64,000 nucleotides of DNA from Syntrophomonadaceae bacterium (GTDB lineage Bacteria > Bacillota > PH28-bin88), in assembly GCA_018333865.1 (NCBI GenBank), contig JAGXSE010000065.1, forward strand, positions 48,794 through 112,793, in the 5' to 3' direction. The notes under the pieces are model-generated. The model ran no database searches. It was not told where the DNA came from and worked only from the letters and a program-made list of their open reading frames with translations. Positions 34,282 through 57,360 of this stretch are shown here, piece by piece; position 1 is the first letter of the stretch, and each line of letters opens with the position of its first letter. The translations under genes were made by a program, and so were the position numbers.

Positions 34282-34923
34282 ATGGGCAACGAAAAAAAAA
34301 TTGGAGTTATATATGGTCCTGTACCAAGCGGAGAGCTATTAATGGATTACCTTTCCAATAAACAAGAGATAGCTTCATACACAGGTGTTTGGCGCGGACG
34401 GATTCTTGGCGAAGAAACTATCCTGGTTAGCTTGCCTCAGTGCGTTATCGAGCTGGAGGAAGTACTGAGGCTATTAATTTCCGAGGGAGTTGACAGGATT
34501 ATTTTCCTCGGCACTGCTCCGGTTTGTATGGCGTCTGCTGAAGAGTCCACAGGCCGTCCGGTAGAATTTATGATCAGCAATGAAGTGGTTTTTGCAGTTC
34601 AGGGAGAACTGGTAACAGTGCCAGCAGATAAGAAACTGGTTGATTTAGGTTTAGCTGCGGCGGAAAATATAGCCGAAACATGGAATATCCGTCTTCTGGC
34701 TGGCAAGCTGATCTCACCGGATATTCCGTTTAGTGTTGCAGAGGGGCCCTACTGTACAGATCGGGAGGCTATTACGGTGCATGAATCATGCTGGCGCAAT
34801 AACCTGTCCTTTGTAACGGTTATCATTAATCAGGACTTTATTCCCGAAGAGAATCAAACCAGCACAAAAGGGTTTTTGCTTATCAAGGGAATATTTGAAG
34901 GCATTCGAGACCTGCAACAATAG
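34282..34923 (+). CDS. hypothetical protein, distant PNP/UDP-phosphorylase-like pattern
   Basis: 213 aa; KIGVIYG start and spacing reminiscent of MTA/SAH nucleosidase N-termini; weak. Confidence 0.3.
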   Translation: MGNEKKIGVIYGPVPSGELLMDYLSNKQEIASYTGVWRGRILGEETILVSLPQCVIELEEVLRLLISEGVDRIIFLGTAPVCMASAEESTGRPVEFMISNEVVFAVQGELVTVPADKKLVDLGLAAAENIAETWNIRLLAGKLISPDIPFSVAEGPYCTDREAITVHESCWRNNLSFVTVIINQDFIPEENQTSTKGFLLIKGIFEGIRDLQQ

Positions 34924-34924
34924 T

Positions 34925-34953
34925 TTGACTATTCCCTCGCAGCTTAGTATAAT
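34925..34953 (+). promoter_or_regulatory. sigma-A-type promoter of ileS
   Basis: TTGACT at 34925-34930, 17-nt spacer, TATAAT at 34948-34953. Confidence 0.5.
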
Positions 34954-34985
34954 ACCTCTTATTGTACTTAGGAGTGGGTAGAGAA

Positions 34986-37772
34986 ATGGGATATGATCAG
35001 ACGCTGAATCTGCCAAAAACAGACTTTCCCATGCGGGGAAATCTGCCGCTAAAAGAACCGGAGATATTGCAGTTCTGGGAAGAAAAGAACATCTATCAGC
35101 TCGTGCAGCAATCAACTGCCGGCAAACCTAAGTTCATCCTGCATGACGGTCCTCCCTACGCCAATGGGGATATTCACTTAGGGACAACACTTAACAAAAT
35201 ACTGAAAGACATTATTGTTAAATTCCATTCCCTGACGGGGCATGATACTCCCTATGTGCCGGGTTGGGATACCCATGGTTTGCCGATTGAACAGCAAGTG
35301 ATCAAGAAACTCGGGATTGACCGCCACCGGGTAGATGTACAGGAATTCCGCAAGAATTGCAAGGATTATGCAATGAAATATGTGGGTGTTCAGCGGGAGC
35401 AGTTTAAGCGGTTAGGAGTTAGAGGGGACTGGGATCGGCCCTACCTGACCTTGGCGCCTGAATTCGAGGCAGTTCAGGTCGGCGTTTTTGGTGAAATGGC
35501 AAAAAAAGGGTTTATTTATAAAGGACTAAAACCTGTTTACTGGTGTACAGACTGTGAAACAGCCCTGGCTGAAGCCGAGGTTGATTACAGTGACAGGCGC
35601 TCACCCTCCGTTTATGTCAGGTTCCCGGTGAAAGCGGCTAATGGCCTGTTTTCCGAACAGGATGCCTATGTGGTGATCTGGACAACCACCCCATGGACTC
35701 TGCCTGCTAATGTCGCCATCGCGGTACATCCTGATTATGATTATGTGCTGGTTGAAGCTGGCAATCAGCGGTTAGTGATGGCAAAGCTTTTATATCAAGC
35801 TGTCCTGAAACTGACGGGGCAGGAGGAGACCAAGGTTTTGGCAGAGTGGAAAGGAAGTCAATTAGAAGGCATCGTCTGCCAGAACCCCCTCATGGAGAGG
35901 GATTCTGTGGTGGTATTGGGGGAACATGTTACCCTTGATCAGGGTACCGGCTGTGTACATACTGCCCCAGGCCATGGACAGGATGACTTTGAAATTGGCA
36001 AAAAATATAACCTGCCAGTAATTTCACCCCTCGATAACCGGGGCAGATTTACACATGAAGGCAAGCAATTCCAGGGGCTTTTTGTGGAAGATGCCAACAA
36101 GGCAATAGGTAAAGAATTGCAGGAAAAGGGAATGCTGCTTCACCTCGGTTTCGTGCAGCATCAATATCCCCATTGCTGGCGATGCAAAAAGCCTGTTCTA
36201 TTCAGGGCTACAGAGCAGTGGTTTGCATCGATTGACGGCTTCAGGCAGGAAGCACTGGAAGCAATAAAAAATGTCAGGTGGATTCCTGCCTGGGGACAAG
36301 AGCGAATTCACAGCATGGTTGCCGAGCGGGGAGATTGGTGCATTTCCAGACAGCGGACCTGGGGTGTCCCGATTCCGATCTTCTATTGCGACGCATGCAA
36401 TGAGGTCATTATTAACGATCAGACAATCACTCACATCCAAAACCTGTTCCGCCAGCATGGTTCAGATATCTGGTTCAGTTCCAAGGCAGATGACCTGACA
36501 CCGTCCGGCTTAAGGTGCGGCAACTGCAGCCACACCCAATTCAGAAAAGAAACAGATATTATGGATGTCTGGTTTGATTCCGGTTCCAGCCATGCTGCTG
36601 TCCTGGAAACCCGTCCGGATCTGCAGTGGCCGGCAGACCTTTACCTGGAGGGAAGCGATCAACACAGGGGTTGGTTTAACTCATCCCTGTCCACCTCGGT
36701 AGCAACCAGAGGGCTTCCTCCCTACCATGCAGTCTTAACCCATGGATATGTGGTGGATGAGCAGGGCCGCAAAATGTCCAAGTCTCTGGGTAATGGCATC
36801 GACCCAATGGATGTCATCAAGGAAATGGGTGCTGATATTTTACGATTATGGGTAGCCTCCGCCGACTACAGGAGAGATGTGGCTGCTTCTCCCAACATCA
36901 TGAAACAGATGGTGGAAGCCTACCGGAAAATACGCAATACCTGCCGCTTTCTTTTAAGCAACCTTTATGATTTCGACCCTGTTCGCTACCAGGTTTCTTA
37001 CCACGAAATGGAAGAGCTTGACCGATGGGCTTTAATGCGCTTGCACCAGTTGATCCGCCGGGTTACCCAAGCCTACCGTGATTATGAATTCCATGTCGTT
37101 TATCATGCAATGCATAACTTTTGTGTAGTTGATATGAGCGCTGTTTACCTGGATATCATCAAAGACAGACTGTATATCATGCCACCAGGTAGCAAAGCCC
37201 GCCGGGCTGCCCAGACTGTAATCCACGAAATAATCACTTCCCTGGTCAGGATGCTAACCCCTGTACTTGCTTTTACCAGCGAGGAGATCTGGCAGCACCT
37301 GCCTGAAACCAAAGGAAAGCCGGAAAGCGTTCAACTGGCTGGCTGGCCTGAGGTTAAACAGGAGTATTTTTCGGAGGAGTTAGAGCATAAGTGGGGCCGC
37401 TTAATGGAGGTCCGCAGCGAAGTAGCCCGTTGCCTGGAAAAGGCTCGAAAGGAAAAGCTGATCGGCAGTTCATTGCAAGCTGAGGTGCTTCTCTACGCCC
37501 TGGATGAAACAGCATACGGTTTTTTGAAATCTAATGAAGGCCTGCTAAATACCCTTTTTATTACCTCCCATGTCCATGTCTACCGGCCGGGTTCCGAGGT
37601 GCCGGAAGCTCTTGAGAACTCTGAGGAAATAAGCGGCTTTAAAGTTTTAGTCCAAAAGGCCAAAGGCGAGAAATGCGAGCGCTGCTGGATGTTTAGCCAG
37701 ACCGTTGGCGGGGATGCGAAACATCCTGTCCTTTGCTCCAGGTGTGCTCAGGTAGTGCAATCCCTGGCTTAA
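34986..37772 (+). CDS. ileS: isoleucine--tRNA ligase
   Basis: Class I HIGH motif (PPYANGDIHLGT), KMSKS, C-terminal zinc knuckle CERCW...CSRC; start could be TTG 34962. Confidence 0.95.
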   Translation: MGYDQTLNLPKTDFPMRGNLPLKEPEILQFWEEKNIYQLVQQSTAGKPKFILHDGPPYANGDIHLGTTLNKILKDIIVKFHSLTGHDTPYVPGWDTHGLPIEQQVIKKLGIDRHRVDVQEFRKNCKDYAMKYVGVQREQFKRLGVRGDWDRPYLTLAPEFEAVQVGVFGEMAKKGFIYKGLKPVYWCTDCETALAEAEVDYSDRRSPSVYVRFPVKAANGLFSEQDAYVVIWTTTPWTLPANVAIAVHPDYDYVLVEAGNQRLVMAKLLYQAVLKLTGQEETKVLAEWKGSQLEGIVCQNPLMERDSVVVLGEHVTLDQGTGCVHTAPGHGQDDFEIGKKYNLPVISPLDNRGRFTHEGKQFQGLFVEDANKAIGKELQEKGMLLHLGFVQHQYPHCWRCKKPVLFRATEQWFASIDGFRQEALEAIKNVRWIPAWGQERIHSMVAERGDWCISRQRTWGVPIPIFYCDACNEVIINDQTITHIQNLFRQHGSDIWFSSKADDLTPSGLRCGNCSHTQFRKETDIMDVWFDSGSSHAAVLETRPDLQWPADLYLEGSDQHRGWFNSSLSTSVATRGLPPYHAVLTHGYVVDEQGRKMSKSLGNGIDPMDVIKEMGADILRLWVASADYRRDVAASPNIMKQMVEAYRKIRNTCRFLLSNLYDFDPVRYQVSYHEMEELDRWALMRLHQLIRRVTQAYRDYEFHVVYHAMHNFCVVDMSAVYLDIIKDRLYIMPPGSKARRAAQTVIHEIITSLVRMLTPVLAFTSEEIWQHLPETKGKPESVQLAGWPEVKQEYFSEELEHKWGRLMEVRSEVARCLEKARKEKLIGSSLQAEVLLYALDETAYGFLKSNEGLLNTLFITSHVHVYRPGSEVPEALENSEEISGFKVLVQKAKGEKCERCWMFSQTVGGDAKHPVLCSRCAQVVQSLA

Positions 37773-37786: not shown

Positions 37787-37814
37787 CTCCGGCTCTTGGC
37801 CGGAGTTTTTTTTT
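37787..37814 (+). terminator. rho-independent terminator after ileS
   Basis: Stem CTCCGGC/GCCGGAG followed by a 9-T run. Confidence 0.7.
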
Positions 37815-37911
37815 GGTGAAATAAAGCCAAATGTTTAAACGACTTAACTGAATTACTTTATTTTTGACCGAGCATACTAATTATCAGCAGCTGGCGGAAG
37901 GTGAAATCGGC

Positions 37912-38544
37912 ATGCTCAATTGCAAGGACCAGAATTTTGATAAAAGGCTCATCCCCATAGGTATCCCCGTTGGAATATCCAACAGGCATGTCCATTTGAC
38001 CCAACAGGATCTGGATGAACTGTTTGGTTCTAACCATCAATTAACTGCCTTTAAAAAGCTTTCCCAACCGGGAGAATATGCTTCCCAGGAAGTAGTCACT
38101 CTTGTTGGTCCCCGGGGAGTTTTGGAGGGCGTCAGGATCCTTGGACCTCCCCGCAGCTACAGCCAGATAGAAATTTCCATGACCGATGCCTATCGAATAG
38201 GGTTGCGTCCTCCGGTAAGGGATTCCGGAGAACTGGCAGGAACTCCCGGTATTGCCATTGTTGGGCAAAAAGGAGCCCAGGCTCTGAAAGAAGGAGTGAT
38301 CCTGGCCGCACGCCATATCCATATGAGTCCTGCCCAAGCTAAAGAACTGGGAGTACAAAAGGGTGACAAAGTTCTGGTCTACGTTAATGGGAAGCGAGGC
38401 TGCATTTTGGAAAATGTGCTGATTAGGGTCCACGAAAAATTTGTGCTGGAAATGCATATCGATACCGATGAAGCAAACTGTTCCCTGATCAAGAATGGCG
38501 ATGAAGTCCACATTGTCAGAAACGGCAATATTCTTCTGCAATGA
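37912..38544 (+). CDS. pduL: phosphate acyltransferase PduL family (paralog 1)
   Basis: Two PduL repeats with GISNRHVHL and ARHIHMS motifs; ATG 37912 with AAGGTG RBS (ORF track start 37864). Confidence 0.8.
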   Translation: MLNCKDQNFDKRLIPIGIPVGISNRHVHLTQQDLDELFGSNHQLTAFKKLSQPGEYASQEVVTLVGPRGVLEGVRILGPPRSYSQIEISMTDAYRIGLRPPVRDSGELAGTPGIAIVGQKGAQALKEGVILAARHIHMSPAQAKELGVQKGDKVLVYVNGKRGCILENVLIRVHEKFVLEMHIDTDEANCSLIKNGDEVHIVRNGNILLQ

Positions 38545-38837
38545 CACAGACGAATAGTCTATTGGATGAATTGAATAAAAAAATAGATATGGTTATGATT
38601 GAACTCCATAAAGCCGGTATAGCCGAATATGTGGAAATGATGCATAGGCCAGGAAGGGTTTTAGCAGTTAATTTTCTGGCGGGTATTGCCCGGGGAATTG
38701 GCATGGCGATAGGTTTCGCCCTTTTAGGGGCTTTGGCAATCATTATACTAAGGAAGCTGGTTGTTTTGAACTTACCTGTAATCAGTGATTTTATTGCCGA
38801 ATTAATCAAAATGGTCCAGTTCCAGATGAAACTATAA
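38541..38837 (+). CDS. hypothetical small membrane protein
   Basis: 98 aa with one hydrophobic stretch; start overlaps pduL stop. Confidence 0.4.
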   Translation: MTQTNSLLDELNKKIDMVMIELHKAGIAEYVEMMHRPGRVLAVNFLAGIARGIGMAIGFALLGALAIIILRKLVVLNLPVISDFIAELIKMVQFQMKL

Positions 38838-38858
38838 AATGGGGAGACGGGGTGTTTT

Positions 38859-39611
38859 GTGAACTACCAGAAACGTCATCGGCAGCAATTAATTATGGCG
38901 AAAAAAGAAGCCGGCAGAATTATTCAGGGTCTTGACTGGCAGGGGCTTTCCCTTCCATTGCAGGAAACTGTTTCAGAACTTTCCGGCTACGATAACCACC
39001 CGGGAGATTTAGCCAGCGAAACCTTTGAACGGAGCAAGGATTTGGCTTTGCGAGCCTTGGCCGTAAAAAGGATGGAAAAAATTGAAAAGGCACTGGATCG
39101 CATGGATGCCGGTATTTATGGCAAATGCCTTGCTTGTGGAAAAGAAATACCAGAAGCCCGGCTGGAAGCTGAACCCGAAGCCGAGTTTTGTATTCAATGC
39201 TTTGACGGGATGGATTTGCCGGACCGGCACCTAAGGCCGATCGAGGAAGATGTCATTAGCCCTCCCTATGGCGGCCTCAACCATGATCGCTCTGCCAGGG
39301 AAGAGCCCGATGGAGAAGATGAAGTAATGTTTGACGGTGAAGACACCTGGCAAATCCTGGCCCGCTGGAATGAACATGCAGAAACCGCCCAATCCGGCTC
39401 TTATTATGGCGGATCAGATCTGGATGAAGACCAGGGTAGTGTGGATAATGTGGAGGCTATTCCTTATTATAAGGGTGCGGATGGCATGTTTTATGAGAGT
39501 CTTGGCGATTATAACGATGAAGATGCCCCCGGTGAAAAAACGGTTGGAGATGAGGGGTGGGACCGGGCTCGGAAAAAACCGCAAGCTAGAAAATTCAGGG
39601 TAGAAAAATAA
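38859..39611 (+). CDS. yteA: TraR/DksA family zinc-finger protein (YteA-like)
   Basis: C4 zinc finger CLACGKEIP...CIQCF; acidic C-terminal tail. Confidence 0.7.
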   Translation: MNYQKRHRQQLIMAKKEAGRIIQGLDWQGLSLPLQETVSELSGYDNHPGDLASETFERSKDLALRALAVKRMEKIEKALDRMDAGIYGKCLACGKEIPEARLEAEPEAEFCIQCFDGMDLPDRHLRPIEEDVISPPYGGLNHDRSAREEPDGEDEVMFDGEDTWQILARWNEHAETAQSGSYYGGSDLDEDQGSVDNVEAIPYYKGADGMFYESLGDYNDEDAPGEKTVGDEGWDRARKKPQARKFRVEK

Positions 39612-39850
39612 TTAAAGAGTCTGAATGAATAGTATAAAGGATGGAATCACACTCAGGGGAGCGGCTCACGGCCCCTTTTCTTATGCATTCAACTTGGCTT
39701 TGGCTGCAGGGGGGGAAGTAGAGTGGCTAGCTACCCATGATAAATGCGTGCTATTTAATTAAGGATAGTTGGGCTTTCATCAGTTATGCTTTGTTGTTTA
39801 TCCTTTTACGGTATGGTAAAATTAACACACTGATCTTGCCGTGGGGAGAG

Positions 39851-40312
39851 ATGGAAGTGTCAGCTTTACTTATAGCTGCAGCAGTATTATTATTTGATCA
39901 GTTAAGTAAATGGATTATCCAGCATACGATGGAAATCGGCCAATCCATCCCGGTGATTACAAATATTTTTCACATCACATACTGGCGCAATCCTGGGGCT
40001 GCTTTCGGCATCCTGGCATTTCATACTAATTTTTTTATCATTGTAGGCATCCTGGTGTCTCTGGTTCTGATCGTAGTTTTGCTGAAACTGCCTCCGGGCA
40101 GAAGCCTGCTTAAAATAGCTTTATCCCTGCAGTTGGGAGGCGCAGCCGGCAATCTAATTGATAGAATGCGTACAGGTTATGTAACAGATTTTTTTGATTT
40201 CCGTGTCTGGCCTGTTTTTAATATCGCTGACAGCGCAATTGTTGTTGGCGTGATACTTCTGTCCTGGGTTCTCCTGATTGCGCCAGAAACAAACCCGAAC
40301 CCAAATGGTTGA
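39851..40312 (+). CDS. lspA: lipoprotein signal peptidase II
   Basis: N-terminus matches Bacillus LspA layout; NPGAAFGIL and FNIADSAIVVG motifs; ORF track start 39737 would add a 38-aa extension. Confidence 0.85.
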   Translation: MEVSALLIAAAVLLFDQLSKWIIQHTMEIGQSIPVITNIFHITYWRNPGAAFGILAFHTNFFIIVGILVSLVLIVVLLKLPPGRSLLKIALSLQLGGAAGNLIDRMRTGYVTDFFDFRVWPVFNIADSAIVVGVILLSWVLLIAPETNPNPNG

Positions 40313-40325
40313 GGTGAAAAAATTG

Positions 40326-41261
40326 ATGATGGATGATGCCGGTGTATTTGTATGCCAGGTATTGCCAGCGGAAGCTGGGGCGCGGTTAGATCTTTTCCTG
40401 GCGGAAAAATACCCTGATCTGTCCAGATCTCGCATCCAAGGGATTATTAGCGATAGATTGCTCACGGTGAACCAGAAAATAGAAAAGCCCAGTTATCGTA
40501 TCCGTTCTGGTGACAGAATTGAATTTAAGATGCCGGAACCTACTCCTTTGGAGGCTGAACCTGAACAGATACCTTTGGAAGTGCTGTATGAGGACCAGGA
40601 TCTGGTTGTGGTCAATAAACCTCAGGGGATGGTAGTCCACCCTGCTGAGGGTAATTACTCCGGCACCCTGGTAAATGCTTTGCTTTTTCACTGCCGGGAT
40701 CTCTCCGGCATCAATGGTCGTTTAAGGCCAGGAATTGTCCACCGCATTGATAAGGACACATCCGGGGTCCTCGTAGTGGCCAAGACAGATTTCGCCCATC
40801 AGGGGTTAGCAGAACAAATAAAGCGGCATTCGGTAGCCAGGATTTATACTGCTCTGGTCCGGGGTAATTTAGCCGATGAACGGGGGACTGTTGATGCCCC
40901 AATTGGCCGCCACCCAGTTGACAGAAAAAGAATGGCTGTTGTTCATGGCGGGCGAAGAGCTGTTACTCATTACCGAGTGCTGAAAAGATTTCGCGGTTAC
41001 GATCTGATCGAAGCCCGTTTGGAAACCGGCCGTACCCATCAAATTCGTGTTCACATGGCTTATATCGGCCACCCTCTGGTGGGTGACTTAAGGTATGGTC
41101 CAGCCGATAATAAGCTGGGCTTGCAAGGGCAGGCCCTTCATGCAACTACCCTCGGATTTGTCCATCCTCGCACTGGCGATTACATTGAATTTTCTGTTTC
41201 ATTACCAGGGAGGATGGAACTGGCATTGCGGCAGTTAGAGGAAAACAGTTTAAAAGAGTGA
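40326..41261 (+). CDS. rluD: RluA-family 23S rRNA pseudouridine synthase (RluD-like)
   Basis: S4-like N-terminus, catalytic HRIDKDTSGVLVVAK motif; ATG 40326 with GAGGTG RBS. Confidence 0.85.
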   Translation: MMDDAGVFVCQVLPAEAGARLDLFLAEKYPDLSRSRIQGIISDRLLTVNQKIEKPSYRIRSGDRIEFKMPEPTPLEAEPEQIPLEVLYEDQDLVVVNKPQGMVVHPAEGNYSGTLVNALLFHCRDLSGINGRLRPGIVHRIDKDTSGVLVVAKTDFAHQGLAEQIKRHSVARIYTALVRGNLADERGTVDAPIGRHPVDRKRMAVVHGGRRAVTHYRVLKRFRGYDLIEARLETGRTHQIRVHMAYIGHPLVGDLRYGPADNKLGLQGQALHATTLGFVHPRTGDYIEFSVSLPGRMELALRQLEENSLKE

Positions 41262-41271
41262 GGGATAGACA

Positions 41272-41517
41272 TTGGGAATAGAATTAGAAGACTGGGACCT
41301 GGTTCTTGTGGCTCCGAGCAGGCTTCAGGCGGAGTTTGTCCGGGCTTTCCTTGAATCGGCAGGATTTTTAGTTCGCCTTGAGGGGGAATCCCTGGGGGCT
41401 ATTTATGGTCTGCAGGTTGGTCCACTGGCTGAGGTTAAGGTTTTTGTTCCCAAGGATCAAGTTGTAGAGGCTAGAGAATTGCTAAATGAAGTTCCCCCGG
41501 AGCAGGAGGAACTCTGA
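41272..41517 (+). CDS. DUF2007-like small protein
   Basis: 81 aa; pattern typical of DUF2007 proteins. Confidence 0.5.
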   Translation: MGIELEDWDLVLVAPSRLQAEFVRAFLESAGFLVRLEGESLGAIYGLQVGPLAEVKVFVPKDQVVEARELLNEVPPEQEEL

Positions 41518-42197
41518 TGAGCTCCAAGGTAATTGCCTGTCCGGTTGATATTAAAGGAAGAACTGGCCTGGATATTTTGGTCCTAAACCCGGCCGCCTCT
41601 GTTGCAGATTATATTGCCGCTGTTGATGCGTTTATCCGCGAGGCTCAGATTGAGCGACCAAGAAGCCAGGGATCCCCTGACTGTTTTGGGTGTTATGCCT
41701 GCTGCCAGGAACGGATTCCCTTAACTTCCATTGATTATGCCCGGCTATATAGCCACTACCTGTTCAGATCAGAAGGCCGACACTGGCACCATTTTTTGGA
41801 CAAGATCAGTCTTATTTCAGTAGCGGGCAGACAGGTGGATATTACCATGAGACTTGAAGAGGACGGGATATGTTCTTTTTTGGAGCGGAATAAAGGGTTG
41901 TGTAGTATTTATCCCATCCGCCCTTTGGTCTGTCATTTGTATATTTGTGTTCCTCTGACAAAAAATGCCATGGATCTGAGGGAATTAGTTGTTAATTTGG
42001 GAGAGGACGATCTGGTAAGGTTATGGCTTGAAGAGGCCTCTCAAGTGGGGGAAGAACCAGCCTACCATGAAGGAGACCAACCTGATTTGCATATTGAAGA
42101 TTGGGCGGATAACCCTTTCAGCGGGAAGAAAGACTACCAGGATGTATTGCTGAAGGATCTTTGCCCTCCTGAATTGTGGTCACGATTATTATCTTAA
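41517..42197 (+). CDS. YkgJ family cysteine-cluster protein
   Basis: CFGCYACC motif (CxxCxxCC); start overlaps upstream stop. Confidence 0.6.
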   Translation: MSSKVIACPVDIKGRTGLDILVLNPAASVADYIAAVDAFIREAQIERPRSQGSPDCFGCYACCQERIPLTSIDYARLYSHYLFRSEGRHWHHFLDKISLISVAGRQVDITMRLEEDGICSFLERNKGLCSIYPIRPLVCHLYICVPLTKNAMDLRELVVNLGEDDLVRLWLEEASQVGEEPAYHEGDQPDLHIEDWADNPFSGKKDYQDVLLKDLCPPELWSRLLS

Positions 42198-42230
42198 TAA
42201 ATCCAGACATTATTTAATTGAGGGGTGTTG

Positions 42231-42953
42231 CCGATGCAAATTGGGGTAGGGGTGTCTGCCAGGCATATTCATTTATCACAGCAGGATCTGGATAGTATAT
42301 TTGGAGCTGGTTACCAGCTGCAGCCAGAACGGCCGTTATCATTCACTACGCAGTTTATTGCCCGGGAACGGTTGCTCCTGAGAGGACCTAAAGGTGAATT
42401 GCGAAATGTTGCTTTGATTGGTCCGCCAAGACCAGCTACCCAAATAGAAATAACGAAATCTGATGGTTATGCCTTGGGGATTATTCCTCCGGTTCGCTTA
42501 TCCGGTAATTTACAGGGTTCTCCAGGGGTTACTCTTGTTAGCACCGAACGGGAAATATCTATATCGGCGGGACTGATTATTGCCATGCGGCATATCCACA
42601 TGACGGAAGATGATGCCGGGGAGCTGGGATTTCAACACAGAGACTTTGCGATGGTGGTTGCAAAAGGAGACCGTTCTTTGGTCTTTGACTTTGTTGTGGT
42701 CAGGGTGGATCCAGCCAATACCCACACAGAATTTCATATTGATACCGATGAGGCTAATGCTTCTGATTTGAAAACCGGTGATATGGTGGATTTACTCCAT
42801 GTTAATGACAAGAAACTCAGGTTAGAGCAGCTTATTAATATGTTTGATGAAAGGCAGCTAAAAATCTTGGAACAATCGATTTCAGTAATTGTTCAGGATG
42901 AAAAAAGACGCCTCACCATGATGGAGGATATGTTAAAACTGCTGCAGAGGTAG
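42231..42953 (+). CDS. pduL: phosphate acyltransferase PduL family (paralog 2)
   Basis: GVSARHIHLSQ and AMRHIHMT repeats; extra ~45-aa C-terminal helical tail. Confidence 0.8.
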   Translation, partial: PMQIGVGVSARHIHLSQQDLDSIFGAGYQLQPERPLSFTTQFIARERLLLRGPKGELRNVALIGPPRPATQIEITKSDGYALGIIPPVRLSGNLQGSPGVTLVSTEREISISAGLIIAMRHIHMTEDDAGELGFQHRDFAMVVAKGDRSLVFDFVVVRVDPANTHTEFHIDTDEANASDLKTGDMVDLLHVNDKKLRLEQLINMFDERQLKILEQSISVIVQDEKRRLTMMEDMLKLLQR

Positions 42954-45325: not shown

Positions 45326-47266
45326 GTGAAGATTTTGAAAAAGCAAAAAGTAATTCGGGTACGGGTTAATGGAAGTCTGGATGCTTTGACTGACATGCTA
45401 AAATACTATTTGTACCAGCAGCCTGGGCAAACAGCAGATAATCTTGTAGCCAGAGTCCTTGGGCGGTTAGTTACAAATCAAACTGCAGCAAAATTGGAGA
45501 AGCATGTCAGCCGGTGTCTGCATAAAAACCCAGCCTTTGAACAAACTTCCAATAACCGGTGGTTGTTGGATGCCAGGGGACAAAGGGGTAATGATCAGCT
45601 CTACCAGTGGCTGCAAACGGCGGGACAAGCTATGAATATAACGGAATTTAGACTCAAAGCTAAGGAGAGAGGAATTGACCCCGAACTGATTCAGGAAAAA
45701 GAACTGGTTACCGACAGCCGCTTTTTGCGCCTGAAAAATGGCAAATGGGCCTTGATCCACTGGGAAATCATCAGGCAGGCTTCTGCAAAGGAATTAGATA
45801 AAGCGATAGAGCAGATGCGCACTACCAGGCAGCCGATGGGTGTAGAAGAGATCGCCCGCAATATCTTAGGTCACGGTGCGGAAGGGACAGATCTTTTGGC
45901 ATGCCTGCAAAAAGATCCCAGGTTCGTATGGGTTGGTGGACATCATTGGTATTTAAGAGAAGCACTGCCAACCCCTGCAGATAGCGGTTCAGTTAGGGCC
46001 TTTGCCTTGGAACCATTCCGCAAGGCTGAAATCACGGCATTAGGTGAAGCAGAGCTGATGTTAATTTTGAACGATACCGATCCTAACTGCCGCGAATATA
46101 TCTTGTCTTCTGTAGATCTTGAGCGCGGCTCCTTAAGGATTACCAAACGGATGGACAGGTTATTTGCCGGGTTGCCGCCTGTAGCTTGGATTTCTTTCAA
46201 CACTCAGACTGGCCCTTTAGAGGCATGGTATCTCCGGATGGGCGGTTCAATACTGGGCTTTGCGCACTGGTTTCTGCAGAACGGCCTCGAGCCTGGCAGC
46301 AAGCTGCGATTAAAACGGGTAATGGGAGAAGAACGGGTATTTAACATAGAAATCACTGGAGAAAGAGAGGCCGAGGTATTTACTGAAGGGTCAAGGGTGC
46401 GTAAACTGGAGGATCTGTGGCGGAAGGCCCAAACAGAAAACTTTGCCTTGGAGCAATTGCTCTTAGAAGTCATGGAACTCTTCCCTGCCGGATTGCCGCA
46501 GGAAGAAGTTGCGCAGTTGATGGCAGCCTTTAAGACTGTTTCCCCGGAAGAGATCGGGCGGTTTATGGAAACAACACCATATTTTGAACGGACAAGTTCA
46601 GGAAATTGGCGCTTTAATCAGGCAATTTTTGAAACCTATCATAAGCTGACCAGAGAACTTTCTTTTATTAAGGATGAAATATCCCGCTCCCAGCAGGAGA
46701 TTGCCGCTACCCTGCAGGAGAACCAACAGCTGATTATGGAAAAAGAGGGCCTGTATGGTGAATTGATTTATCTTAAGAACCATCATCGGGATCAGGAATC
46801 TCAACTGCAGGAAAAAATACGCCGCTTAAAGGATCATCTGGAGGAATTGCAGCGGGAACATGCCAAGGCAAGGGCTGAACTGGAGAAACAGCTAAAACAG
46901 CGGGAAACACTGCAACAGGAACTGGAAAAGTCTAAGCAGCAGCTTCAGGTCCTCCGGGCGGATAGAGATAGCCTGAAGATAAAGACTGAGCAGCTTGAGT
47001 CAAGAATCTTGCAGCTTCAGGGCAATCTAAGCCGCTCCCGGGAAGAAATCGAGGAGCAGCATTTGCGGGTAAACCAGCGGTTAAAGGAACTGGAAGCAAA
47101 GCTCCATAACTCCGTCATATCTAACGATGACCTTGAGCGGACAGTGGTAAAGCTCCAGGAGGAGCGGCGCTTGTTAAAACGCCGGATGAACCATTGGCTG
47201 GTGCGCTGGGCCATCGCCCTCACCTCTGGGTGGCGGCAAAACGGCAATAACTTTTTGAAATCCTAA
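45326..47266 (+). CDS. hypothetical protein with tandem winged-helix (HARE-HTH-like) repeats and C-terminal coiled coil
   Basis: 646 aa; three to four repeats ending in RFLRLKNGKWALIHWE, RFVWVGGHHWYLRE, YFERTSSGNWRF; last ~200 aa heptad-rich. Confidence 0.5.
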   Translation: MKILKKQKVIRVRVNGSLDALTDMLKYYLYQQPGQTADNLVARVLGRLVTNQTAAKLEKHVSRCLHKNPAFEQTSNNRWLLDARGQRGNDQLYQWLQTAGQAMNITEFRLKAKERGIDPELIQEKELVTDSRFLRLKNGKWALIHWEIIRQASAKELDKAIEQMRTTRQPMGVEEIARNILGHGAEGTDLLACLQKDPRFVWVGGHHWYLREALPTPADSGSVRAFALEPFRKAEITALGEAELMLILNDTDPNCREYILSSVDLERGSLRITKRMDRLFAGLPPVAWISFNTQTGPLEAWYLRMGGSILGFAHWFLQNGLEPGSKLRLKRVMGEERVFNIEITGEREAEVFTEGSRVRKLEDLWRKAQTENFALEQLLLEVMELFPAGLPQEEVAQLMAAFKTVSPEEIGRFMETTPYFERTSSGNWRFNQAIFETYHKLTRELSFIKDEISRSQQEIAATLQENQQLIMEKEGLYGELIYLKNHHRDQESQLQEKIRRLKDHLEELQREHAKARAELEKQLKQRETLQQELEKSKQQLQVLRADRDSLKIKTEQLESRILQLQGNLSRSREEIEEQHLRVNQRLKELEAKLHNSVISNDDLERTVVKLQEERRLLKRRMNHWLVRWAIALTSGWRQNGNNFLKS

Positions 47267-51650: not shown

Positions 51651-52694
51651 ATGCAGTTTGATAAACCAGTACTGGCCATAGACGTGGGCGGAGGGACCCA
51701 GGATATTTTTTTATTTCAACCCGGTCAATCCGTGGAAAACTCTGTGCAGATGGTCCTGCCTTCCCAGACCCAGGTAATTGCCCGTCAGATCAGGGAAATC
51801 ACCGACAGACGAGAAGACCTGTTCCTGACGGGGAGTTTAATGGGCGGGGGGGCTTCCAGTTCAGCCATCCGAAAACACCTTGCCGCCGGGTGCCGGGTTT
51901 ATGCTAACCCTGAGGCCGCCAAAACCCTGGACGATGACCTGCATAAGGTGCGGGCAACGGGAGTTATAATTACTGAAAGCCAACCCAGAAACACTGTCTC
52001 AGTTACAATGGGCGATATCAACCTGCCGGCCCTGGCAGCGGCTCTAAAGACTTTTGCCGTTGAACTGCCGGAACAGATTGTGGTTGCTGTGCAGGACCAT
52101 GGGGAAAGCCCGGGCTTCAGCAACAGGTTATTCCGCTTCCAGCACTGGCAGCGTTTTGTAGCTGAAGGTGGTGATATCAGACGGCTTTTATACAGTGAGG
52201 TTCCCTCATACCTGACCAGGATGCTGGCAGTTAAAGCTTTGCTACCCCAGGCTTATCTGGCCGATACGGGTACCGCTGCCATTTGGGGGGCATTGGAAGA
52301 CCCGCAGGTGGCCGTAAAACAGGCTGAAGGGGTAATCCTGCTCAATGTGGGAAATCAGCATACGGTGGGAGTGCTGCTGAAAAAATGGCAAGTCTATGGG
52401 CTGTTTGAACACCATACCGGCTTGCTGAATTCTGGAAAGTTGATTGACTATATCGAAAGGCTCCGCATGGGAGCATTAACCCATGCCGAAGTATACCAGG
52501 ATGGCGGTCATGGCTGTTATATCAGCCCAGACTATAATCCGGCGTCAGGGTTTAATCTGGTAGCCGTCACCGGGCCAAGACGAGCCATGACATGGGGAGC
52601 TGGGTATTATTTGGCTGTGCCCCACGGCAACATGATGCTGGCCGGCGCCTTCGGACTGGTAGCAGCATTGGCTGCCCGACAAATAGAGCAATAA
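51651..52694 (+). CDS. ASKHA-fold protein (possibly DUF1786-like)
   Basis: N-terminal LAIDVGGGTQDIF phosphate-1-like motif; no Fe-S Cys motifs; assignment from memory. Confidence 0.4.
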   Translation: MQFDKPVLAIDVGGGTQDIFLFQPGQSVENSVQMVLPSQTQVIARQIREITDRREDLFLTGSLMGGGASSSAIRKHLAAGCRVYANPEAAKTLDDDLHKVRATGVIITESQPRNTVSVTMGDINLPALAAALKTFAVELPEQIVVAVQDHGESPGFSNRLFRFQHWQRFVAEGGDIRRLLYSEVPSYLTRMLAVKALLPQAYLADTGTAAIWGALEDPQVAVKQAEGVILLNVGNQHTVGVLLKKWQVYGLFEHHTGLLNSGKLIDYIERLRMGALTHAEVYQDGGHGCYISPDYNPASGFNLVAVTGPRRAMTWGAGYYLAVPHGNMMLAGAFGLVAALAARQIEQ

Positions 52695-53415
52695 AGCATA
52701 CAAATCGCAATATTTTATACTTGTCTGGGAAAAACATAAATAATAAGCTTAAAATTAAGAAGGATACAAGGAGGTTTTCACTATGTCTGTATTGGAGGAT
52801 ATCAAACAAGCAGTGATTGACGGGAACGCTCCCAAGGTGAAAGCTATAACTGAAAGAGCTCTGGTCGAAGGAATCAGTATTAACGACATCATCAACGAAG
52901 GCTTAATCGGTGGGATGAGCTATATCGGCGTCAGGTTTAAAAACAACGAAGTCTATGTGCCCGAGGTCTTGATTGCCGCCAGGGCGATGCATGCGGGCAT
53001 GGGTGTGATGAAACCTTTGTTAACGGGTGAAAATTTTCAATCTAAAGGCACCTTTGTAATCGGCACCGTAAAAGGTGATCTCCACGACATCGGCAAGAAC
53101 CTGGTGATCATGATGATGGAAGGAGCTGGCTTTAAGGTTGTTGACCTGGGGATAGATGTGCCAACGGAAAAGTTCATTAAAGCCATTGAGGAGCATAAAC
53201 CCCAGATTGTCGGGCTTTCAGCCTTGTTGACTACAACCATGGTCCAGATGAAAAACACCATTCAAGAACTTAAGCCTTACCGCAATGAAATCAAAGTGAT
53301 GATCGGCGGAGCGCCGCTAACCCAAAAGTTTGCCGATGAAATCGGCGCCGATGCCTATGCTCCGGATGCGGCTACTGCTGTCGAACTGGCGACAGAACTT
53401 CTGGCTTCATAGCTG
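52695..53415 (+). repeat. direct repeat copy 1 (corrinoid-protein gene plus upstream element)
   Basis: About 95% nucleotide identity by eye to 56480-57193 across the coding region; upstream shares ACAAATCGCAATAT...ACTTGTCT. Confidence 0.8.
52783..53412 (+). CDS. cobalamin-binding corrinoid protein
   Basis: 209 aa; B12-binding motif GDLHDIGKNLV (DxHxxG) and Rossmann-like domain; AAGGAGG RBS. Confidence 0.85.
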   Translation: MSVLEDIKQAVIDGNAPKVKAITERALVEGISINDIINEGLIGGMSYIGVRFKNNEVYVPEVLIAARAMHAGMGVMKPLLTGENFQSKGTFVIGTVKGDLHDIGKNLVIMMMEGAGFKVVDLGIDVPTEKFIKAIEEHKPQIVGLSALLTTTMVQMKNTIQELKPYRNEIKVMIGGAPLTQKFADEIGADAYAPDAATAVELATELLAS

Positions 53416-53432
53416 AAAGGAGGCCGACCTCA

Positions 53433-54227
53433 GTGCTGGTTGTCGGCGAATTAATCAATTCTACCCGTAAAGCCATTGCCCAGGCCCTGGAGCAAAGAGA
53501 CCAGGCTTACCTGCAGGATTTGGCCCGGCGCCAGGTAGAGGCTGGCGCTTTGATCATCGATGTCAATGCGGCAATCGGTGGTAATGAAGCTGATCGCATG
53601 AAGTGGCTGGTAGAAATCGTGCAGGAAGCGGTGGGGGTGCCTCTTTGTATTGACAGTCCAAGTGCTGCTGCTATTGAGGCCGGTCTGGCCGTCTGCCGGG
53701 AAAAAGCCATGCTGAACTCCATTACGGCAGAAGACTACCGTTGGAACGAACTCTTGCCAGTTGTGCAAAAGTACAAGCCCCGCGTAATCGCCCTTTGTAT
53801 GGGTGACGGACCAATGCCTGAAACTACCCTTGACCGCCTGCGGGAAGCAGAAAAACTGGTGCCAGGCCTGGTGGCTGCGGGCATCCCGATTGAGGACATT
53901 TACCTTGATCCATTAATTAAACCCCTGGGGGTTAATACTAAACATGCTATGGAAGCCTTAGAAAGCACCCGTGCCTTACGCCTGGAATATCCCGGTGTAC
54001 ATATTATCTGTGGTTTATCCAATGTTTCTTTTGGCCTGCCAGAGCGTCGCCTGTTAAACAGAGCCTTTATGGTGATGGCAATTTCCTCTGGCATGGATGC
54101 CCTTATTATGGATCCCCTGGATCACCCTACCATGTCCTTCTTAGCGGCTGCCAGGGCTTTAGTTGGGCAGGACGAATACTGCCTGGAATACATTGCCGGT
54201 GTCAGGTCAGGAAGGGTTAAGGCTTAG
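53433..54227 (+). CDS. pterin-binding methyltransferase (methylcorrinoid:tetrahydrofolate type, MtrH/AcsE-like)
   Basis: 264 aa DHPS-like barrel; GELINS start, IDVNAA and HIICGLSNVSFGLP segments. Confidence 0.7.
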   Translation: MLVVGELINSTRKAIAQALEQRDQAYLQDLARRQVEAGALIIDVNAAIGGNEADRMKWLVEIVQEAVGVPLCIDSPSAAAIEAGLAVCREKAMLNSITAEDYRWNELLPVVQKYKPRVIALCMGDGPMPETTLDRLREAEKLVPGLVAAGIPIEDIYLDPLIKPLGVNTKHAMEALESTRALRLEYPGVHIICGLSNVSFGLPERRLLNRAFMVMAISSGMDALIMDPLDHPTMSFLAAARALVGQDEYCLEYIAGVRSGRVKA

Positions 54228-54259
54228 AGAAAGGTAATAAAAAATGGGGGTGGCTAAAA

Positions 54260-55405
54260 ATGGGAGCACTAACCCCGCGGGAACGGGTCCGGCGGGCACT
54301 AAGTTTCCAGGAGCCTGACCGGGTTCCCACCGATGTGGGAACCAGTGCAGCGACAGGGATCACCCTGGGGGCTTATGAGCAATTAAAGCAGTATCTAAAG
54401 ATGCCTGATGCTACTGGGAGCGTAAATCACTTGATGTTTCAGACGGTAACGGCAGATCACCGGGTGCTGGAAAGGCTGGGAGTGGATTTCCGTCCGGTAT
54501 ACTATCGCCCGCCTGCCGAAAACAAGGGTATTTGGGGGCCTGATGACACTTTTGTCACAGAATGGGGGTTTACTGTCAAACGGCCTGAAGGCGGCCTGTA
54601 TTATGACATTATTAAAAGCCCATTGCTAGAGGCAGAAATAGAAGACCTGGACAGGTATCCCTGGCCGGATCCCCATGACCCAGGCCGGATCGCCGGAGTG
54701 GCTAAAGAGGCCAAGGAACTCTACGAGCAGACAGATTATGCAATATTTGGCCCGGGCATGGAAGGCGGATTTTTCGAGCTTTCCTGGTATTTAAGAGGAA
54801 TAGAGCGCTTTTTTATGGACCTAATCGAAAACAAAGAGTTTGTCCACGCCCTGTTCCGGAAGCTTTTGGATTATCGCAAGGCTTTATTGGGACGTTATCT
54901 TGATGCAGCAGGAAAATACCTGGATGTAGTGTATTACGGGGACGACATCGCCATGCAGACCGGCCCTTTGATGTCTTTAGGGCTCTACCGGGAGCTGGTC
55001 AAGCCCTATCAAAAAGAGCTGTTCAGTTTTATTAAAGAAAAGACCGAGGCCAAGCTCTTCTACCACACCTGTGGCAGCGTGGTAAAGTACTTGGACGATC
55101 TGATCGAGATCGGGGTTGATATCATTAACCCCGTTCAGGTCAGCGCCAAGGATATGGATACTGCCAGGTTAAAGCAAAGCTATGGCCATCGGCTGGTATT
55201 CTGGGGCGGGATCGATACCCAGCATGTCTTGCCTTTTGGTACAGAAGAAGAAGTAGAGGAAGAGGTAAAAAGGCGGATTAAAGACCTGGCTCCGGGCGGC
55301 GGCTATGTCTTGGGGCCTGTGCATAACGTCCAGCCTGACGTGCCTCCCCAGAACCTGGTGCGAGTTTTCCAGGCCGCCAGCCAGTACGGTGTTTATCATA
55401 GATAG
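54260..55405 (+). CDS. URO-D/MtaA-family methyltransferase (substrate:corrinoid type), copy 1
   Basis: 381 aa with PDRVP near N-terminus and HTCGS, GGGYVLGPVHNV segments. Confidence 0.8.
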   Translation: MGALTPRERVRRALSFQEPDRVPTDVGTSAATGITLGAYEQLKQYLKMPDATGSVNHLMFQTVTADHRVLERLGVDFRPVYYRPPAENKGIWGPDDTFVTEWGFTVKRPEGGLYYDIIKSPLLEAEIEDLDRYPWPDPHDPGRIAGVAKEAKELYEQTDYAIFGPGMEGGFFELSWYLRGIERFFMDLIENKEFVHALFRKLLDYRKALLGRYLDAAGKYLDVVYYGDDIAMQTGPLMSLGLYRELVKPYQKELFSFIKEKTEAKLFYHTCGSVVKYLDDLIEIGVDIINPVQVSAKDMDTARLKQSYGHRLVFWGGIDTQHVLPFGTEEEVEEEVKRRIKDLAPGGGYVLGPVHNVQPDVPPQNLVRVFQAASQYGVYHR

Positions 55406-55659
55406 CTACCCGCTCTAATCCCCCCACTAGTTGGGACATTCCTTTAAAGCGGCGGGATAAGAGCGGTTACGCTACACAAAGTTGGGGACATTCCTGTCCC
55501 AAAAAAATGGCCTGAGCTTCAGCAGGTGTGTCCCCGTTCCTTTTATCTGGCTCTAAGCTTCAGTGGGGGTAGTAATCCCCCCTCTGAAGCCAAGACCCAG
55601 TTGAACCAATCAGATTATAGCCCCTTCGATAGCTTAAAATAACCCAAGTATAAAACAGG

Positions 55660-55695
55660 CTGGAAGTGCCTTCGCCTAGGCGAAGGCACTTCCAG
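55660..55695 (+). repeat. 36-nt perfect inverted repeat (hairpin)
   Basis: CTGGAAGTGCCTTCGCC-TA-GGCGAAGGCACTTCCAG; no T-run on the plus side, T-rich on the minus side. Confidence 0.7.
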
Positions 55696-55723
55696 CAATT
55701 CTCATGGCCTCTAGCAACGCAGA

Positions 55724-55751
55724 TTGCATTTTTCGCCATTTCCTTTATAAT
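55724..55751 (+). promoter_or_regulatory. sigma-A-type promoter for the small two-gene cassette
   Basis: TTGCAT at 55724-55729, 16-nt spacer, TATAAT at 55746-55751. Confidence 0.45.
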
Positions 55752-55809
55752 CTAAGATAGCAGTGGTATGATGTCAAGCAACTAAATAGTATACCAAGGG
55801 GGTGTTTTT

Positions 55810-56067
55810 ATGGTTCCGTCACCCAAAGTTAAGAAACATCTCAGTGAGATCAAAAGAGAGCAGTGGACAGAGGCGGAATTGAGAGAGCTGCTCAAAGCCA
55901 TTGCCCGGGATTTCCAATTGCAAATCGAGATATCCGGCGAATCTGCAGATGATGATTTTTGGGCACTCACCCCGGATGAGGATCAGCATTTCAATGACCT
56001 GCTGGTCAAATCAGCGAGAGACACCAAAAATAAGTGTTTTACCGAATACAGTAGGCCGCAGCTCTAA
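55810..56067 (+). CDS. small acidic protein (antitoxin-like)
   Basis: 85 aa; acidic C-terminal half; ATG with AAGGGGG RBS; 2 nt from the next ORF. Confidence 0.3.
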   Translation: MVPSPKVKKHLSEIKREQWTEAELRELLKAIARDFQLQIEISGESADDDFWALTPDEDQHFNDLLVKSARDTKNKCFTEYSRPQL

Positions 56068-56069
56068 TC

Positions 56070-56396
56070 ATGCGCAGAAAGATCAGATTTCGCAGAACTC
56101 ATACCTATAATGAGGAATTGTTAAACATCCGGGAATTCAACCGGGAATTGGCCGAACAGATTGAAGAAAAGCGAGAGTATTTTGAGCGTTGCCTGACCAA
56201 TCCCCCTTACCTTCCGTCACCAGGCCTCAACATGGAGACACTGGAGGGTAAAATTACCCGGCCCGATTGGCTGAGAGGGTACCCTAAACTATACAGCTTC
56301 AGGGTGAATAAATATGCCCGAGTAATTTTCTGGTGGGCTGAAGACGGAACATGCGAGTATTTATTTCCTTTTGCCAAGCATTACAGAAGAAGTTGA
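56070..56396 (+). CDS. small basic protein with RelE/YoeB-like C-terminal pattern (toxin-like)
   Basis: 108 aa; C-terminus YSFRVNKYARVIFWWAEDGTCEYLFPFAKHYRR fits the RelE/ParE/YoeB core pattern. Confidence 0.3.
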   Translation: MRRKIRFRRTHTYNEELLNIREFNRELAEQIEEKREYFERCLTNPPYLPSPGLNMETLEGKITRPDWLRGYPKLYSFRVNKYARVIFWWAEDGTCEYLFPFAKHYRRS

Positions 56397-56423
56397 AGCT
56401 TCCTGCGAGGGAGGCTTTTTTTT
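56397..56423 (+). terminator. rho-independent terminator
   Basis: Stem AGCTTCC/GGAGGCT (one G-U) followed by TTTTTTTT. Confidence 0.6.
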
Positions 56424-56479
56424 CAGTTCTTCAAAATGCTGGCTAACATTAAACACCAAAAAAGCAAAATAACAAACAA

Positions 56480-57193: not shown

Positions 57194-57337
57194 TTGTTGA
57201 CATTAATCTGACTGCGCCATCCATCGTTAAGCACCAAAATTTCTTGTGTTGCCAATGTCTGATTATAAAGGATTTCTTAAAAGAGAAATTTGTGCGCCAG
57301 GATCTAACTTGTGATCGTGATAGTGTTTAAGTTGAAA

Positions 57338-57360
57338 GAAGTATTTGCACAGAATACTTC
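57338..57360 (+). promoter_or_regulatory. 8-bp-stem hairpin between corrinoid gene 2 and the methyltransferase
   Basis: GAAGTATT-tgcacag-AATACTTC; not followed by a T-run. Confidence 0.3.

Follow-up and report, generated by a model that had tools for sequence, protein, structure and literature searches.

What do PduL-type phosphotransacylases do when they are encoded among housekeeping genes, away from any bacterial microcompartment (BMC) locus? The question is raised by a 64-kb stretch of DNA from a Syntrophomonadaceae bacterium (contig JAGXSE010000065.1, positions 48,794 to 112,793), referred to here as the window, which carries two such genes, PduL-1 and PduL-2. From the comparison of sequences, gene orders and a structural model, both would be free cytosolic phosphotransacylases and neither would be microcompartment cargo, a reading to which we give a probability of roughly 0.7. 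In this reading, PduL-1 is a housekeeping enzyme of the type known from Moorella, and PduL-2 belongs to an old and narrow subfamily that carries a C-terminal tail. The replacement of the phosphotransacetylase Pta by PduL is already known; the new element is the PduL-2 subfamily, with its tail and altered coenzyme A (CoA) site.

Two complete PduL paralogs

The original prediction had placed two PduL paralogs about 4 kb apart amid housekeeping genes. This description holds, as both are full PF06130 proteins, encoded on the plus strand 3.7 kb apart (Table 1). PduL-1 matches PF06130 over its whole length with 254.7 bits and PduL-2 with 210.2 bits (cut-off 25 for both), and against NF011652 (NCBIfam PRK15070; cut-off 209) the scores are 267.6 and 221.6 bits, respectively. 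The two proteins (MBS3977681.1 and MBS3977688.1 at NCBI) are 42% identical across 195 residues (E = 3e-52).

For PduL-1, the preferred start is the ATG at 37912, which is preceded by the Shine-Dalgarno sequence AAGGTGA at a spacing of 9 nt. The TTG at 37864, chosen by some gene callers, has no ribosome-binding site, and the PGAP/NCBI call likewise gives 210 amino acids (aa). The open reading frame (ORF) of PduL-2 spans 42225-42953, and its true start is the ATG at 42234, with GAGGGG before it and the same start in all homologs. Exact look-ups of the 242-aa and 210-aa protein forms gave no match; the 239-aa PduL-2 was matched exactly on 13 contigs of the JGI, ENA and Logan assemblies, which are up to 320 kb long and carry PduL-1 as well.

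PduL-1 is an ordinary enzyme in every respect that was compared. Its zinc ligands and CoA-contact residues are all canonical, and its nearest named relatives are found in Calderihabitans (66% identity), a Thermoanaerobacteraceae metagenome-assembled genome (MAG; 65%) and Moorella thermoacetica (P0136; 58%). In M. thermoacetica (locus L086), the gene order divIVA-ileS-PduL-DUF5665-yteA-...-lspA-rluD-small ORF-methylase is the same as in the window, and the N-terminus of PduL-1 (MLNCKDQNFDKR...) is similar to that of the Moorella ortholog (MIKFRDEDF...). In a neighbour-joining tree, PduL-1 falls in a clade of 31 tips that includes Moorella and has no BMC-linked member. Judged by sequence and position, PduL-1 is thus the positional ortholog of the ileS-linked PduL of M. 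thermoacetica, an ordinary housekeeping form. The order PduL-DUF5665-yteA-like was also seen in M. thermoacetica at L086 8733-9026 and in Clostridiales bacterium PH28_bin88 at L002 5770-6039.

The fold was tested for PduL-2 only, against the solved PduL of Rhodopseudomonas palustris (5CUO). A phmmer comparison gave E = 1.4e-46. The AlphaFold2 (AF2) model of PduL-2 has a mean predicted local distance difference test score (pLDDT) of 84, and its core superposes on 5CUO with a template modelling (TM) score of 0.93-0.94 and a root-mean-square deviation (rmsd) of 1.5 A. Foldseek gave E = 6.6e-23 for the same pair, and the predicted fold is thus the two-beta-barrel fold of PduL.

A separate observation concerns position 42592. 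The window has A there, which gives His120, the Zn2 ligand in the motif RHIHM, as against T (Leu) in the ENA contig ERZ27300254 k141_45726. It is the sole difference between the two across 20.7 kb. The His120 form is present on 13 contigs of other samples, and the Leu form may stem from an error of assembly or be a rare variant that inactivates the enzyme.

A tailed subfamily of PduL

A search with PduL-2 returned about 25 clusters of proteins of 230-242 residues, which covered 84-100% of the query, including the tail. The next matches were ordinary untailed PduLs with at most 51% identity and about 77% coverage. PduL-2 and 25 other cluster representatives share all the features that define the tailed subfamily: they are without an N-terminal extension, they possess a C-terminal module, and they have a hydrophobic residue in place of Gln74 and Ala or Gly in place of Arg97. 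The non-truncated members begin 7-10 residues before the equivalent of Ser45.

The heliobacterial members are Heliorestis convoluta, H. acidaminivorans, Heliophilum fasciatum, Heliobacterium chlorum, H. mobile, Heliomicrobium undosum and H. modesticaldum Ice1 (ABZ85062.1), such that a tailed PduL is present in every heliobacterial genus sampled. The others are uncultured Clostridia, including PH28_bin88, along with Desulfitibacter sp. BRH_c19 and Peptococcaceae bacterium DYL19.

In the neighbour-joining tree, the tailed sequences form a monophyletic clade from which untailed ones are absent. When the tree is midpoint-rooted, this clade is the deepest branch, and the other 236 PduLs sampled are together its sister group. 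Core identity has a mean of 66% among the tailed proteins and of 47% between them and other PduLs. Sequence comparison thus points to a rare and narrow PduL subfamily, which is apparently undescribed. That PduL-2 is a recent duplicate of PduL-1 is ruled out by the 42% identity of the pair and by the branching of the tailed clade outside all other sampled PduLs.

Another PduL was noticed in PH28_bin88 (P0185, L093 2249-2863). It is untailed and without an encapsulation peptide, has His at position 74 and lies in a context unrelated to BMCs. As it is the third PduL of that genome, relatives of PH28_bin88 may carry three PduLs.

Active sites of the two paralogs

The active-site positions were mapped with the numbering of 5CUO and compared between 26 tailed and 215 other PduLs. 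The six zinc ligands (His48, His50, Glu109, His157, His159 and His204, which are H11, H13, E72, H120, H122 and H168 in PduL-2 numbering) are kept in both paralogs, as are Arg103, Gln107, Ser127, Arg194 and Asn211. The zinc ligands, Arg103 and Ser127 are kept throughout the tailed clade as well, save for one assembly variant in which the equivalent of His157 is Leu.

The CoA side is different. The set of CoA-contact residues (Ser45, Lys70, Arg97, Leu99, His204 and Asn211) is complete in PduL-1 and incomplete in PduL-2, where Arg97 is replaced by Ala, Leu99 by Ile and Lys70 by Arg. The clade-specific substitutions in PduL-2 are Q74F, G76T, R97A and L99I. Gln74, present in 212 of the 215 other PduLs, is Ile, Phe, Leu or Met in all 26 tailed ones. 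Arg97, which is listed as CoA-binding in the solved PduL structure (PMC4784909), is equally common elsewhere (212/215), and is Ala or Gly throughout the tailed set (26/26). Leu99 (198/215 others) has likewise become Ile or Val in 26/26, and Gly76 (209/215 others) has become Thr or Ser in 22/26. No untailed sequence has both Gln74 and Arg97 changed; thus, the tail and the remodelled CoA side occur together. This co-occurrence may reflect a functional link of the tail to the altered CoA side, and shared ancestry would account for it just as well.

It had also been suggested that the two paralogs possibly differ in acyl specificity. The sequences lend no support to this idea, because the proposed acyl-pocket residues Ser45 and Ala154 are identical in both, and neither has at position 77 the Tyr or Phe that marks lactyl-CoA enzymes, the residue there being an ordinary one in both (Glu in PduL-1, Gln in PduL-2). 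The differences between the paralogs lie in the CoA-side residues (Gln74, Gly76, Arg97 and Leu99) and in the tail.

The C-terminal tail

PduL-2 continues for 52 residues past the last residue that can be aligned to the solved PduL. The tail had first been described as helical and of about 45 aa; its helical nature is supported by the model, and its length is corrected to 52 residues. In the AF2 model, a coil is followed by a helix at residues 197-203 and a second helix of 33 residues (206-238). The confidence is lowest at residues 190-210 (block means of 54-63) and rises to 75-88 along the long helix.

The conservation of the tail is considerable. It is kept in all 26 members of the clade, and the C-terminal extension measures 51-53 residues in 24 of them, as against fewer than 10 residues in 189 of the 215 other PduLs. 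In an alignment of 18 members, the columns N191, D192, K193, K194, R196, E198, I201, D205 and Q208 are invariant. The tailed proteins are only about 55-70% identical overall, yet these nine tail positions do not vary. The distal part is a more variable amphipathic stretch, in which Glu223 is invariant in the same alignment. The tail can thus be written as the motif NDKKxRxExxI..D[ED][RQ]Q followed by a long amphipathic helix.

A profile of the tail alone was compared with 1.84 billion representative proteins and gave three matches, namely the representative of the clade and, as two fragments, the protein of the window itself. Because nothing outside the clade was matched, the tail is not a domain common to other proteins. 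Against Pfam, at E-values up to 10, only sub-threshold matches were obtained, to DBD_HTH (18.8 bits, cut-off 25) and Secretin_N. The distal tail has a heptad-like hydrophobic pattern, and among PDB sequences its distal half is weakly similar to a designed self-associating four-helix-bundle peptide (E of 0.05-0.9 per stretch). Homology to such designed peptides was rejected, and the similarity is taken as one of composition or heptads. The heptad pattern and the likeness to bundle peptides suggest, at the level of sequence, a self-association module.

C-terminal extensions are also seen in other PduLs. Four proteins (P0028, P0030, P0031 and P0036) combine an N-terminal helix resembling an encapsulation peptide with a C-terminal extension of about 70 residues (...TPLARDTIKELG...), which is unrelated to the tail of PduL-2.

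The tailed PduL in heliobacteria

Extracts of H. modesticaldum have phosphotransacetylase (PTA) activity of 400-500 nmol/min/mg, and no pta gene is annotated in this organism (Tang et al., PMC2887804). In 2020, the heliobacterial phosphotransacetylase gene was still described as 'unidentified' (PMC7143216). The tailed protein ABZ85062.1 is the only PduL detected in H. modesticaldum, and its database name is already 'phosphate propanoyltransferase'. A BMC-type PduL occurs in H. undosum, H. gestii, H. chlorum and H. mobilis. Neither its top 120 relatives nor those of PduL-1 include a protein of H. modesticaldum or Heliorestis. Since such lists should show an ortholog among their first entries, and no other PduL was found, the tailed PduL appears to be the best, and possibly the only, candidate for the heliobacterial PTA activity. 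A link between heliobacteria and PduL was not found in the literature, most subscription journals being outside the coverage of that search.

ABZ85062.1 is thus a specific candidate for an activity that the two heliobacterial papers could not assign. The matter is of some importance, as PTA activity is central to the dark fermentative ATP synthesis of these phototrophs.

Proposed function and its alternatives

Both paralogs are proposed to be di-zinc enzymes that interconvert acyl-CoA plus phosphate and acyl-phosphate plus CoA. In supplying an acetate kinase whose gene lies elsewhere, they would support substrate-level ATP synthesis and so take the part that Pta plays in other bacteria. The PduL-2 subfamily would have retained the catalytic machinery while exchanging Gln74 for Ile, Phe, Leu or Met and Arg97 for Ala or Gly, and would have gained the 52-residue C-terminal module. 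We infer that the distal amphipathic helix of this module drives self-association, either as a coiled coil or as a helical bundle. The proximal segment (NDKKxR), which is basic and invariant, would pack close to the altered CoA site, perhaps in trans, and may stand in for the missing Arg97. What would then distinguish the paralogs is affinity, oligomeric state or regulation, and not the acyl chain that they prefer.

The further proposal is more tentative, and we would give it somewhat less than even odds. It states that the tailed PduLs are a distinct subfamily acting as the phosphotransacetylase of heliobacteria and related Clostridia, in which the C-terminal module oligomerises the enzyme and supplies basic residues to a CoA site devoid of Arg97. 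If true, this would be a structural solution differing from both Pta and canonical PduL.

The original prediction had also suggested that PduL substitutes for Pta. This part is plausible in view of the intact enzymes, the missing encapsulation peptide, the housekeeping context, the Moorella ortholog and the heliobacteria. The idea is sound but not new, because it has been published for Moorella and was raised in the PduL structure paper (PMC4784909).

The gene contexts were also considered, and they comprise two tailed loci among the 80 PduL loci listed and five exact-protein look-ups. The arrangement ileS-PduL-1...lspA-rluD-DUF2007-(CxxCxxCC)-PduL-2 is conserved in PH28_bin88 (L002) and on another MAG contig (L083). 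The two-paralog arrangement is kept there at 60-70% protein identity, and DUF2007 adjoins PduL-2 in both. In Desulfitibacter, in Heliorestis acidaminivorans and on a JGI contig, the tailed gene is found on its own, in neighbourhoods that are unrelated and differ in their flanking genes. Because the neighbours differ between contexts, they do not suggest a partner gene.

Several points weigh against the reading of both proteins as free cytosolic phosphotransacylases, or against its details. Phosphotransacylase activity has been published for untailed homologs only (Salmonella, R. palustris and Moorella). The loss of Arg97 need not be made up for by the tail and could instead weaken binding or change the substrate. 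The model, being that of a monomer, is silent on oligomers and is least confident precisely in the proximal, conserved part of the tail. The tailed PduL has no conserved neighbour gene that would point to a partner. A canonical pta, ack or BMC locus could be encoded elsewhere in the genome, beyond the window. Finally, the ileS-linked Moorella gene is probably Moth_0864 (pduL1), an identification made by exclusion, pduL2 being Moth_1181 by primer names (PMC8065083).

The strongest alternative is that PduL-2 has diverged to another job. Its substrate may be a different thiol carrier or acyl-phosphate, it may run chiefly in reverse, or it may be a regulated or moonlighting enzyme, with the tail docking it to a specific partner such as acetate kinase, PFOR or CODH/ACS. 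The clade-specific changes do fall at CoA-binding or near-active-site residues (PMC4784909), the tail is strongly conserved and restricted to the clade, and covalent Ack-PduL fusions show that coupling to acetate kinase has been selected elsewhere (PMC4784909). However, the six metal ligands along with Arg103, Gln107, Ser127, Arg194, His204 and Asn211 are invariant in the clade, no neighbour gene is conserved over five different contexts, and H. modesticaldum shows ordinary PTA activity with no other detected PduL or pta. A changed job for PduL-2 is therefore considered unlikely, though it survives better than the alternatives that follow.

The microcompartment question

That no microcompartment genes lie near the two paralogs had been noted from the sequence and is confirmed for the whole window by tblastn and Pfam. 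The tblastn queries, searched in all frames, were PduA, EutM, EutN, PduN, AckA and Pta. No BMC-H or BMC-P shell gene (PF00936, PF03319) and no AckA gene was found in any frame of the 64 kb, and signature-enzyme genes were likewise absent from it. As controls, the same searches found shell genes in 22 of the 80 other PduL loci listed and AckA in seven. The Pta query matched nothing anywhere, in the control loci either; the absence of Pta from the window, therefore, rests on the Pfam scans of its ORFs, in which none was found.

The N-termini point in the same direction. The controls were the PduLs of 14 shell-linked loci with a delimitable N-terminal region, which have extensions of 22-129 residues with an amphipathic helix moment of 1.15-2.32, for example IRRIVLEVEKKLEE. 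In PduLs at loci without shell genes, the extension is mostly 4-14 residues. Before the active-site motif, PduL-1 has about 20 residues, whose helical hydrophobic moment is at best 0.57, and PduL-2 only five (seven before the Ser45 equivalent). The second copy had been said to carry no recognisable encapsulation peptide; measured against the BMC-linked controls, neither paralog has one.

A genome with both kinds of PduL is that of Heliomicrobium undosum. It carries a complete Pdu microcompartment locus (L092 1650-16523) with shell genes, diol dehydratase and its reactivase, aldehyde dehydrogenase, PduO, PduS, EutN and a PduL that has the canonical N-terminal amphipathic helix. The tailed PduL lies on another contig, without BMC genes. 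That the Pdu locus has its own peptide-bearing PduL and the tailed gene is elsewhere speaks directly against the tail as a targeting signal for the H. undosum compartment.

It may still be argued that one or both paralogs serve a microcompartment encoded elsewhere in the genome, with the C-terminal helix of PduL-2 as an encapsulation peptide of a non-canonical kind. This helix is amphipathic, some BMC enzymes do have C-terminal targeting helices, and the evidence on BMC genes covers the window and not the remainder of the genome. However, encapsulation peptides are short, poorly conserved and placed behind a linker, whereas the tail has 52 residues, is highly conserved and joins the core without a variable linker. 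On these grounds, and on that of the separate peptide-bearing PduL of H. undosum, the tail was rejected as an encapsulation peptide. Moreover, the tailed gene adjoins shell genes in none of six contexts, and tailed PduLs occur in H. modesticaldum and Heliorestis, where no BMC-type PduL was found. A role in a distant microcompartment is thus very improbable. The least probable alternative is that PduL-2 is a redundant duplicate with a neutral extension and no distinct role, since, for all the shared catalytic residues of the paralogs and the two PduLs that Moorella too keeps, the pair is only 42% identical, the tail holds nine invariant positions among proteins of about 55-70% overall identity and a fixed length of 51-53 residues in 24/26, and no branch of the sampled family is deeper than the tailed clade.

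Genomic context

The features of the locus are collected in Table 1. The gene content of the window was taken from Pfam scans of the larger ORFs and precomputed Pfam hits for 32.2-53 kb.

Table 1. Features of the PduL-1/PduL-2 locus (positions in the window)
Feature	Position	Strand	Basis or remark
ileS (isoleucyl-tRNA synthetase)	34962..37772	+	Pfam tRNA-synt_1, Anticodon_1, zf-FPG_IleRS; upstream anchor of the conserved neighbourhood
Intrinsic-terminator-like hairpin and T-run 3' of ileS	37787..37815	+	8-bp stem with 6 G-C pairs, then T-run
PduL-1, 210-aa PduL-type phosphotransacylase without encapsulation peptide or tail	37912..38544	+	PF06130, E = 5.5e-76
DUF5665 small protein	38541..38837	+	PF18910, E = 3.9e-20
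yteA/ylyA-like DksA/TraR zinc-finger protein, lspA, rluD	38859..41261	+	TIGR02890, PF01258, PF01252, PF00849
DUF2007 and CxxCxxCC (YkgJ-type) genes, directly 5' of PduL-2	41272..42197	+	PF09413, PF03692
PduL-2, 239-aa tailed PduL; catalytic core is residues 1-187	42234..42953	+	PF06130, E = 2.6e-62
C-terminal tail of PduL-2, residues 188-239	42795..42950	+	Beyond the end of the alignment to R. palustris PduL
Most conserved part of the tail, NDKKLRLEQLINMFDERQ, residues 191-208	42804..42857	+	Invariant columns in the clade alignment

PduL-1 probably begins a transcription unit of its own, because the terminator-like hairpin and T-run separate it from ileS. Terminator-like sites in the region do not exceed shuffled sequences in total, and the hairpin was thus judged by its position and strength only. 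The start of the DUF5665 gene overlaps the stop of PduL-1 by 4 nt. The housekeeping block of yteA/ylyA-like, lspA and rluD separates the two paralogs, and the tight spacing of the DUF2007 and CxxCxxCC genes indicates that they are probably co-transcribed with PduL-2. A T-box leader was not found by the Rfam scan before ileS (34923-34985), the preceding ORF ending about 60 nt from it, and across the window as a whole no match attained the gathering score of its Rfam family.

The Pfam scans further revealed a ROK kinase, an aldolase and an M20 peptidase. The window also contains a complete dcw cluster (mraW, PBP, murE/F, mraY, murD, ftsW, murG, murC, murB, murA and ftsQ/A/Z), the sporulation genes spoIIGA and spoIIR with two sporulation-type sigma factors, and a ylm/sepF/proC/divIVA block. 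A PgpA-like protein, a DNA methylase and a nitroreductase are encoded 3' of PduL-2, and farther downstream are an amylase-family gene, corrinoid methyltransferase genes and a TRAP transporter. The corrinoid-dependent methyltransferase cluster (51651-58513 and 58615-61777) comprises DUF1786, two B12-binding proteins, a pterin-binding methyltransferase and two URO-D/MtaA-like proteins, followed by the TRAP transporter. It suggests methyl-group metabolism feeding methyl-tetrahydrofolate and would fit a route from acetyl-CoA to acetate that needs a phosphotransacylase. Two conserved ORFs gave no Pfam match. One (45326-47266) encodes a protein of 646 residues with a long, coiled-coil-like C-terminal half; the other (34282-34923), between divIVA and ileS, encodes a protein of 213 residues with a PH28_bin88 homolog at 32% identity.

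Implications

The tailed subfamily provides a set of sequences in which the CoA site of PduL is remodelled, and thus bears on how a convergent di-zinc enzyme binds its cofactor. For the annotation of anaerobic Bacillota, the acetyl-phosphate route to acetate is not to be scored as missing when pta is absent but a PduL, tailed or untailed, is present. Similarly, a PduL gene by itself is no evidence of a microcompartment.

Comparison with known systems

The closest known system is that of M. thermoacetica. This organism is without pta, and its two PduLs are both reported to act as phosphotransacetylases (PMC8065083, citing Breitkopf 2016; PMC5039349). The reported Km values for acetyl-CoA are 0.49 and 0.04 mM for PduL1 and PduL2 (PMC8065083), and PduL deletion is reported to divert carbon from acetate (PMC8065083; PMC5039349). 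As in the window, two paralogs lie outside microcompartment loci in a spore-forming anaerobe, and PduL-1 shares with the ileS-linked copy both 58% identity and the neighbourhood ileS-PduL-DUF5665-yteA...lspA-rluD. The second Moorella copy, however, is untailed and grouped with ordinary PduLs, and in M. mulderi it is flanked by feoB and IclR-type regulators. PduL-2 is a member of the tailed clade, of which no representative was seen in Moorella.

The PduL of R. palustris (rPduL; 5CUO/5CUP; Erbilgin et al. 2016, PMC4784909) is the structural reference. PduL-2 is 44% identical to it, with a TM score of 0.93 and an rmsd of 1.5 A, and has the same di-zinc site, Arg103 and Ser127. Unlike the PduLs of the window, rPduL is microcompartment cargo with an N-terminal encapsulation peptide, and PduL-2, in turn, is without Gln74 and Arg97 and has the added 52-residue C-terminal module.

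PduLs in genomes without shell genes, and Ack-PduL fusions without an encapsulation peptide, were noted earlier (PMC4784909). These fusions resemble the present case in that a PduL without an encapsulation peptide serves a Pta-Ack type pathway outside microcompartments. Their coupling is covalent, whereas here there is no fusion and no ack gene in the window. Fusions of about 595 residues, with acetate kinase first and PduL second, were also seen in Roseinatronobacter bogoriensis (L053 8792-10558) and a Natronohydrobacter MAG (L065 2623-4359).

Lastly, Pta (PF01515) catalyses the same reaction and has the same presumed physiological role. Its fold, however, is unrelated to that of PduL and there is no sequence similarity between them, PduL being a convergent di-metal enzyme (PMC4784909).

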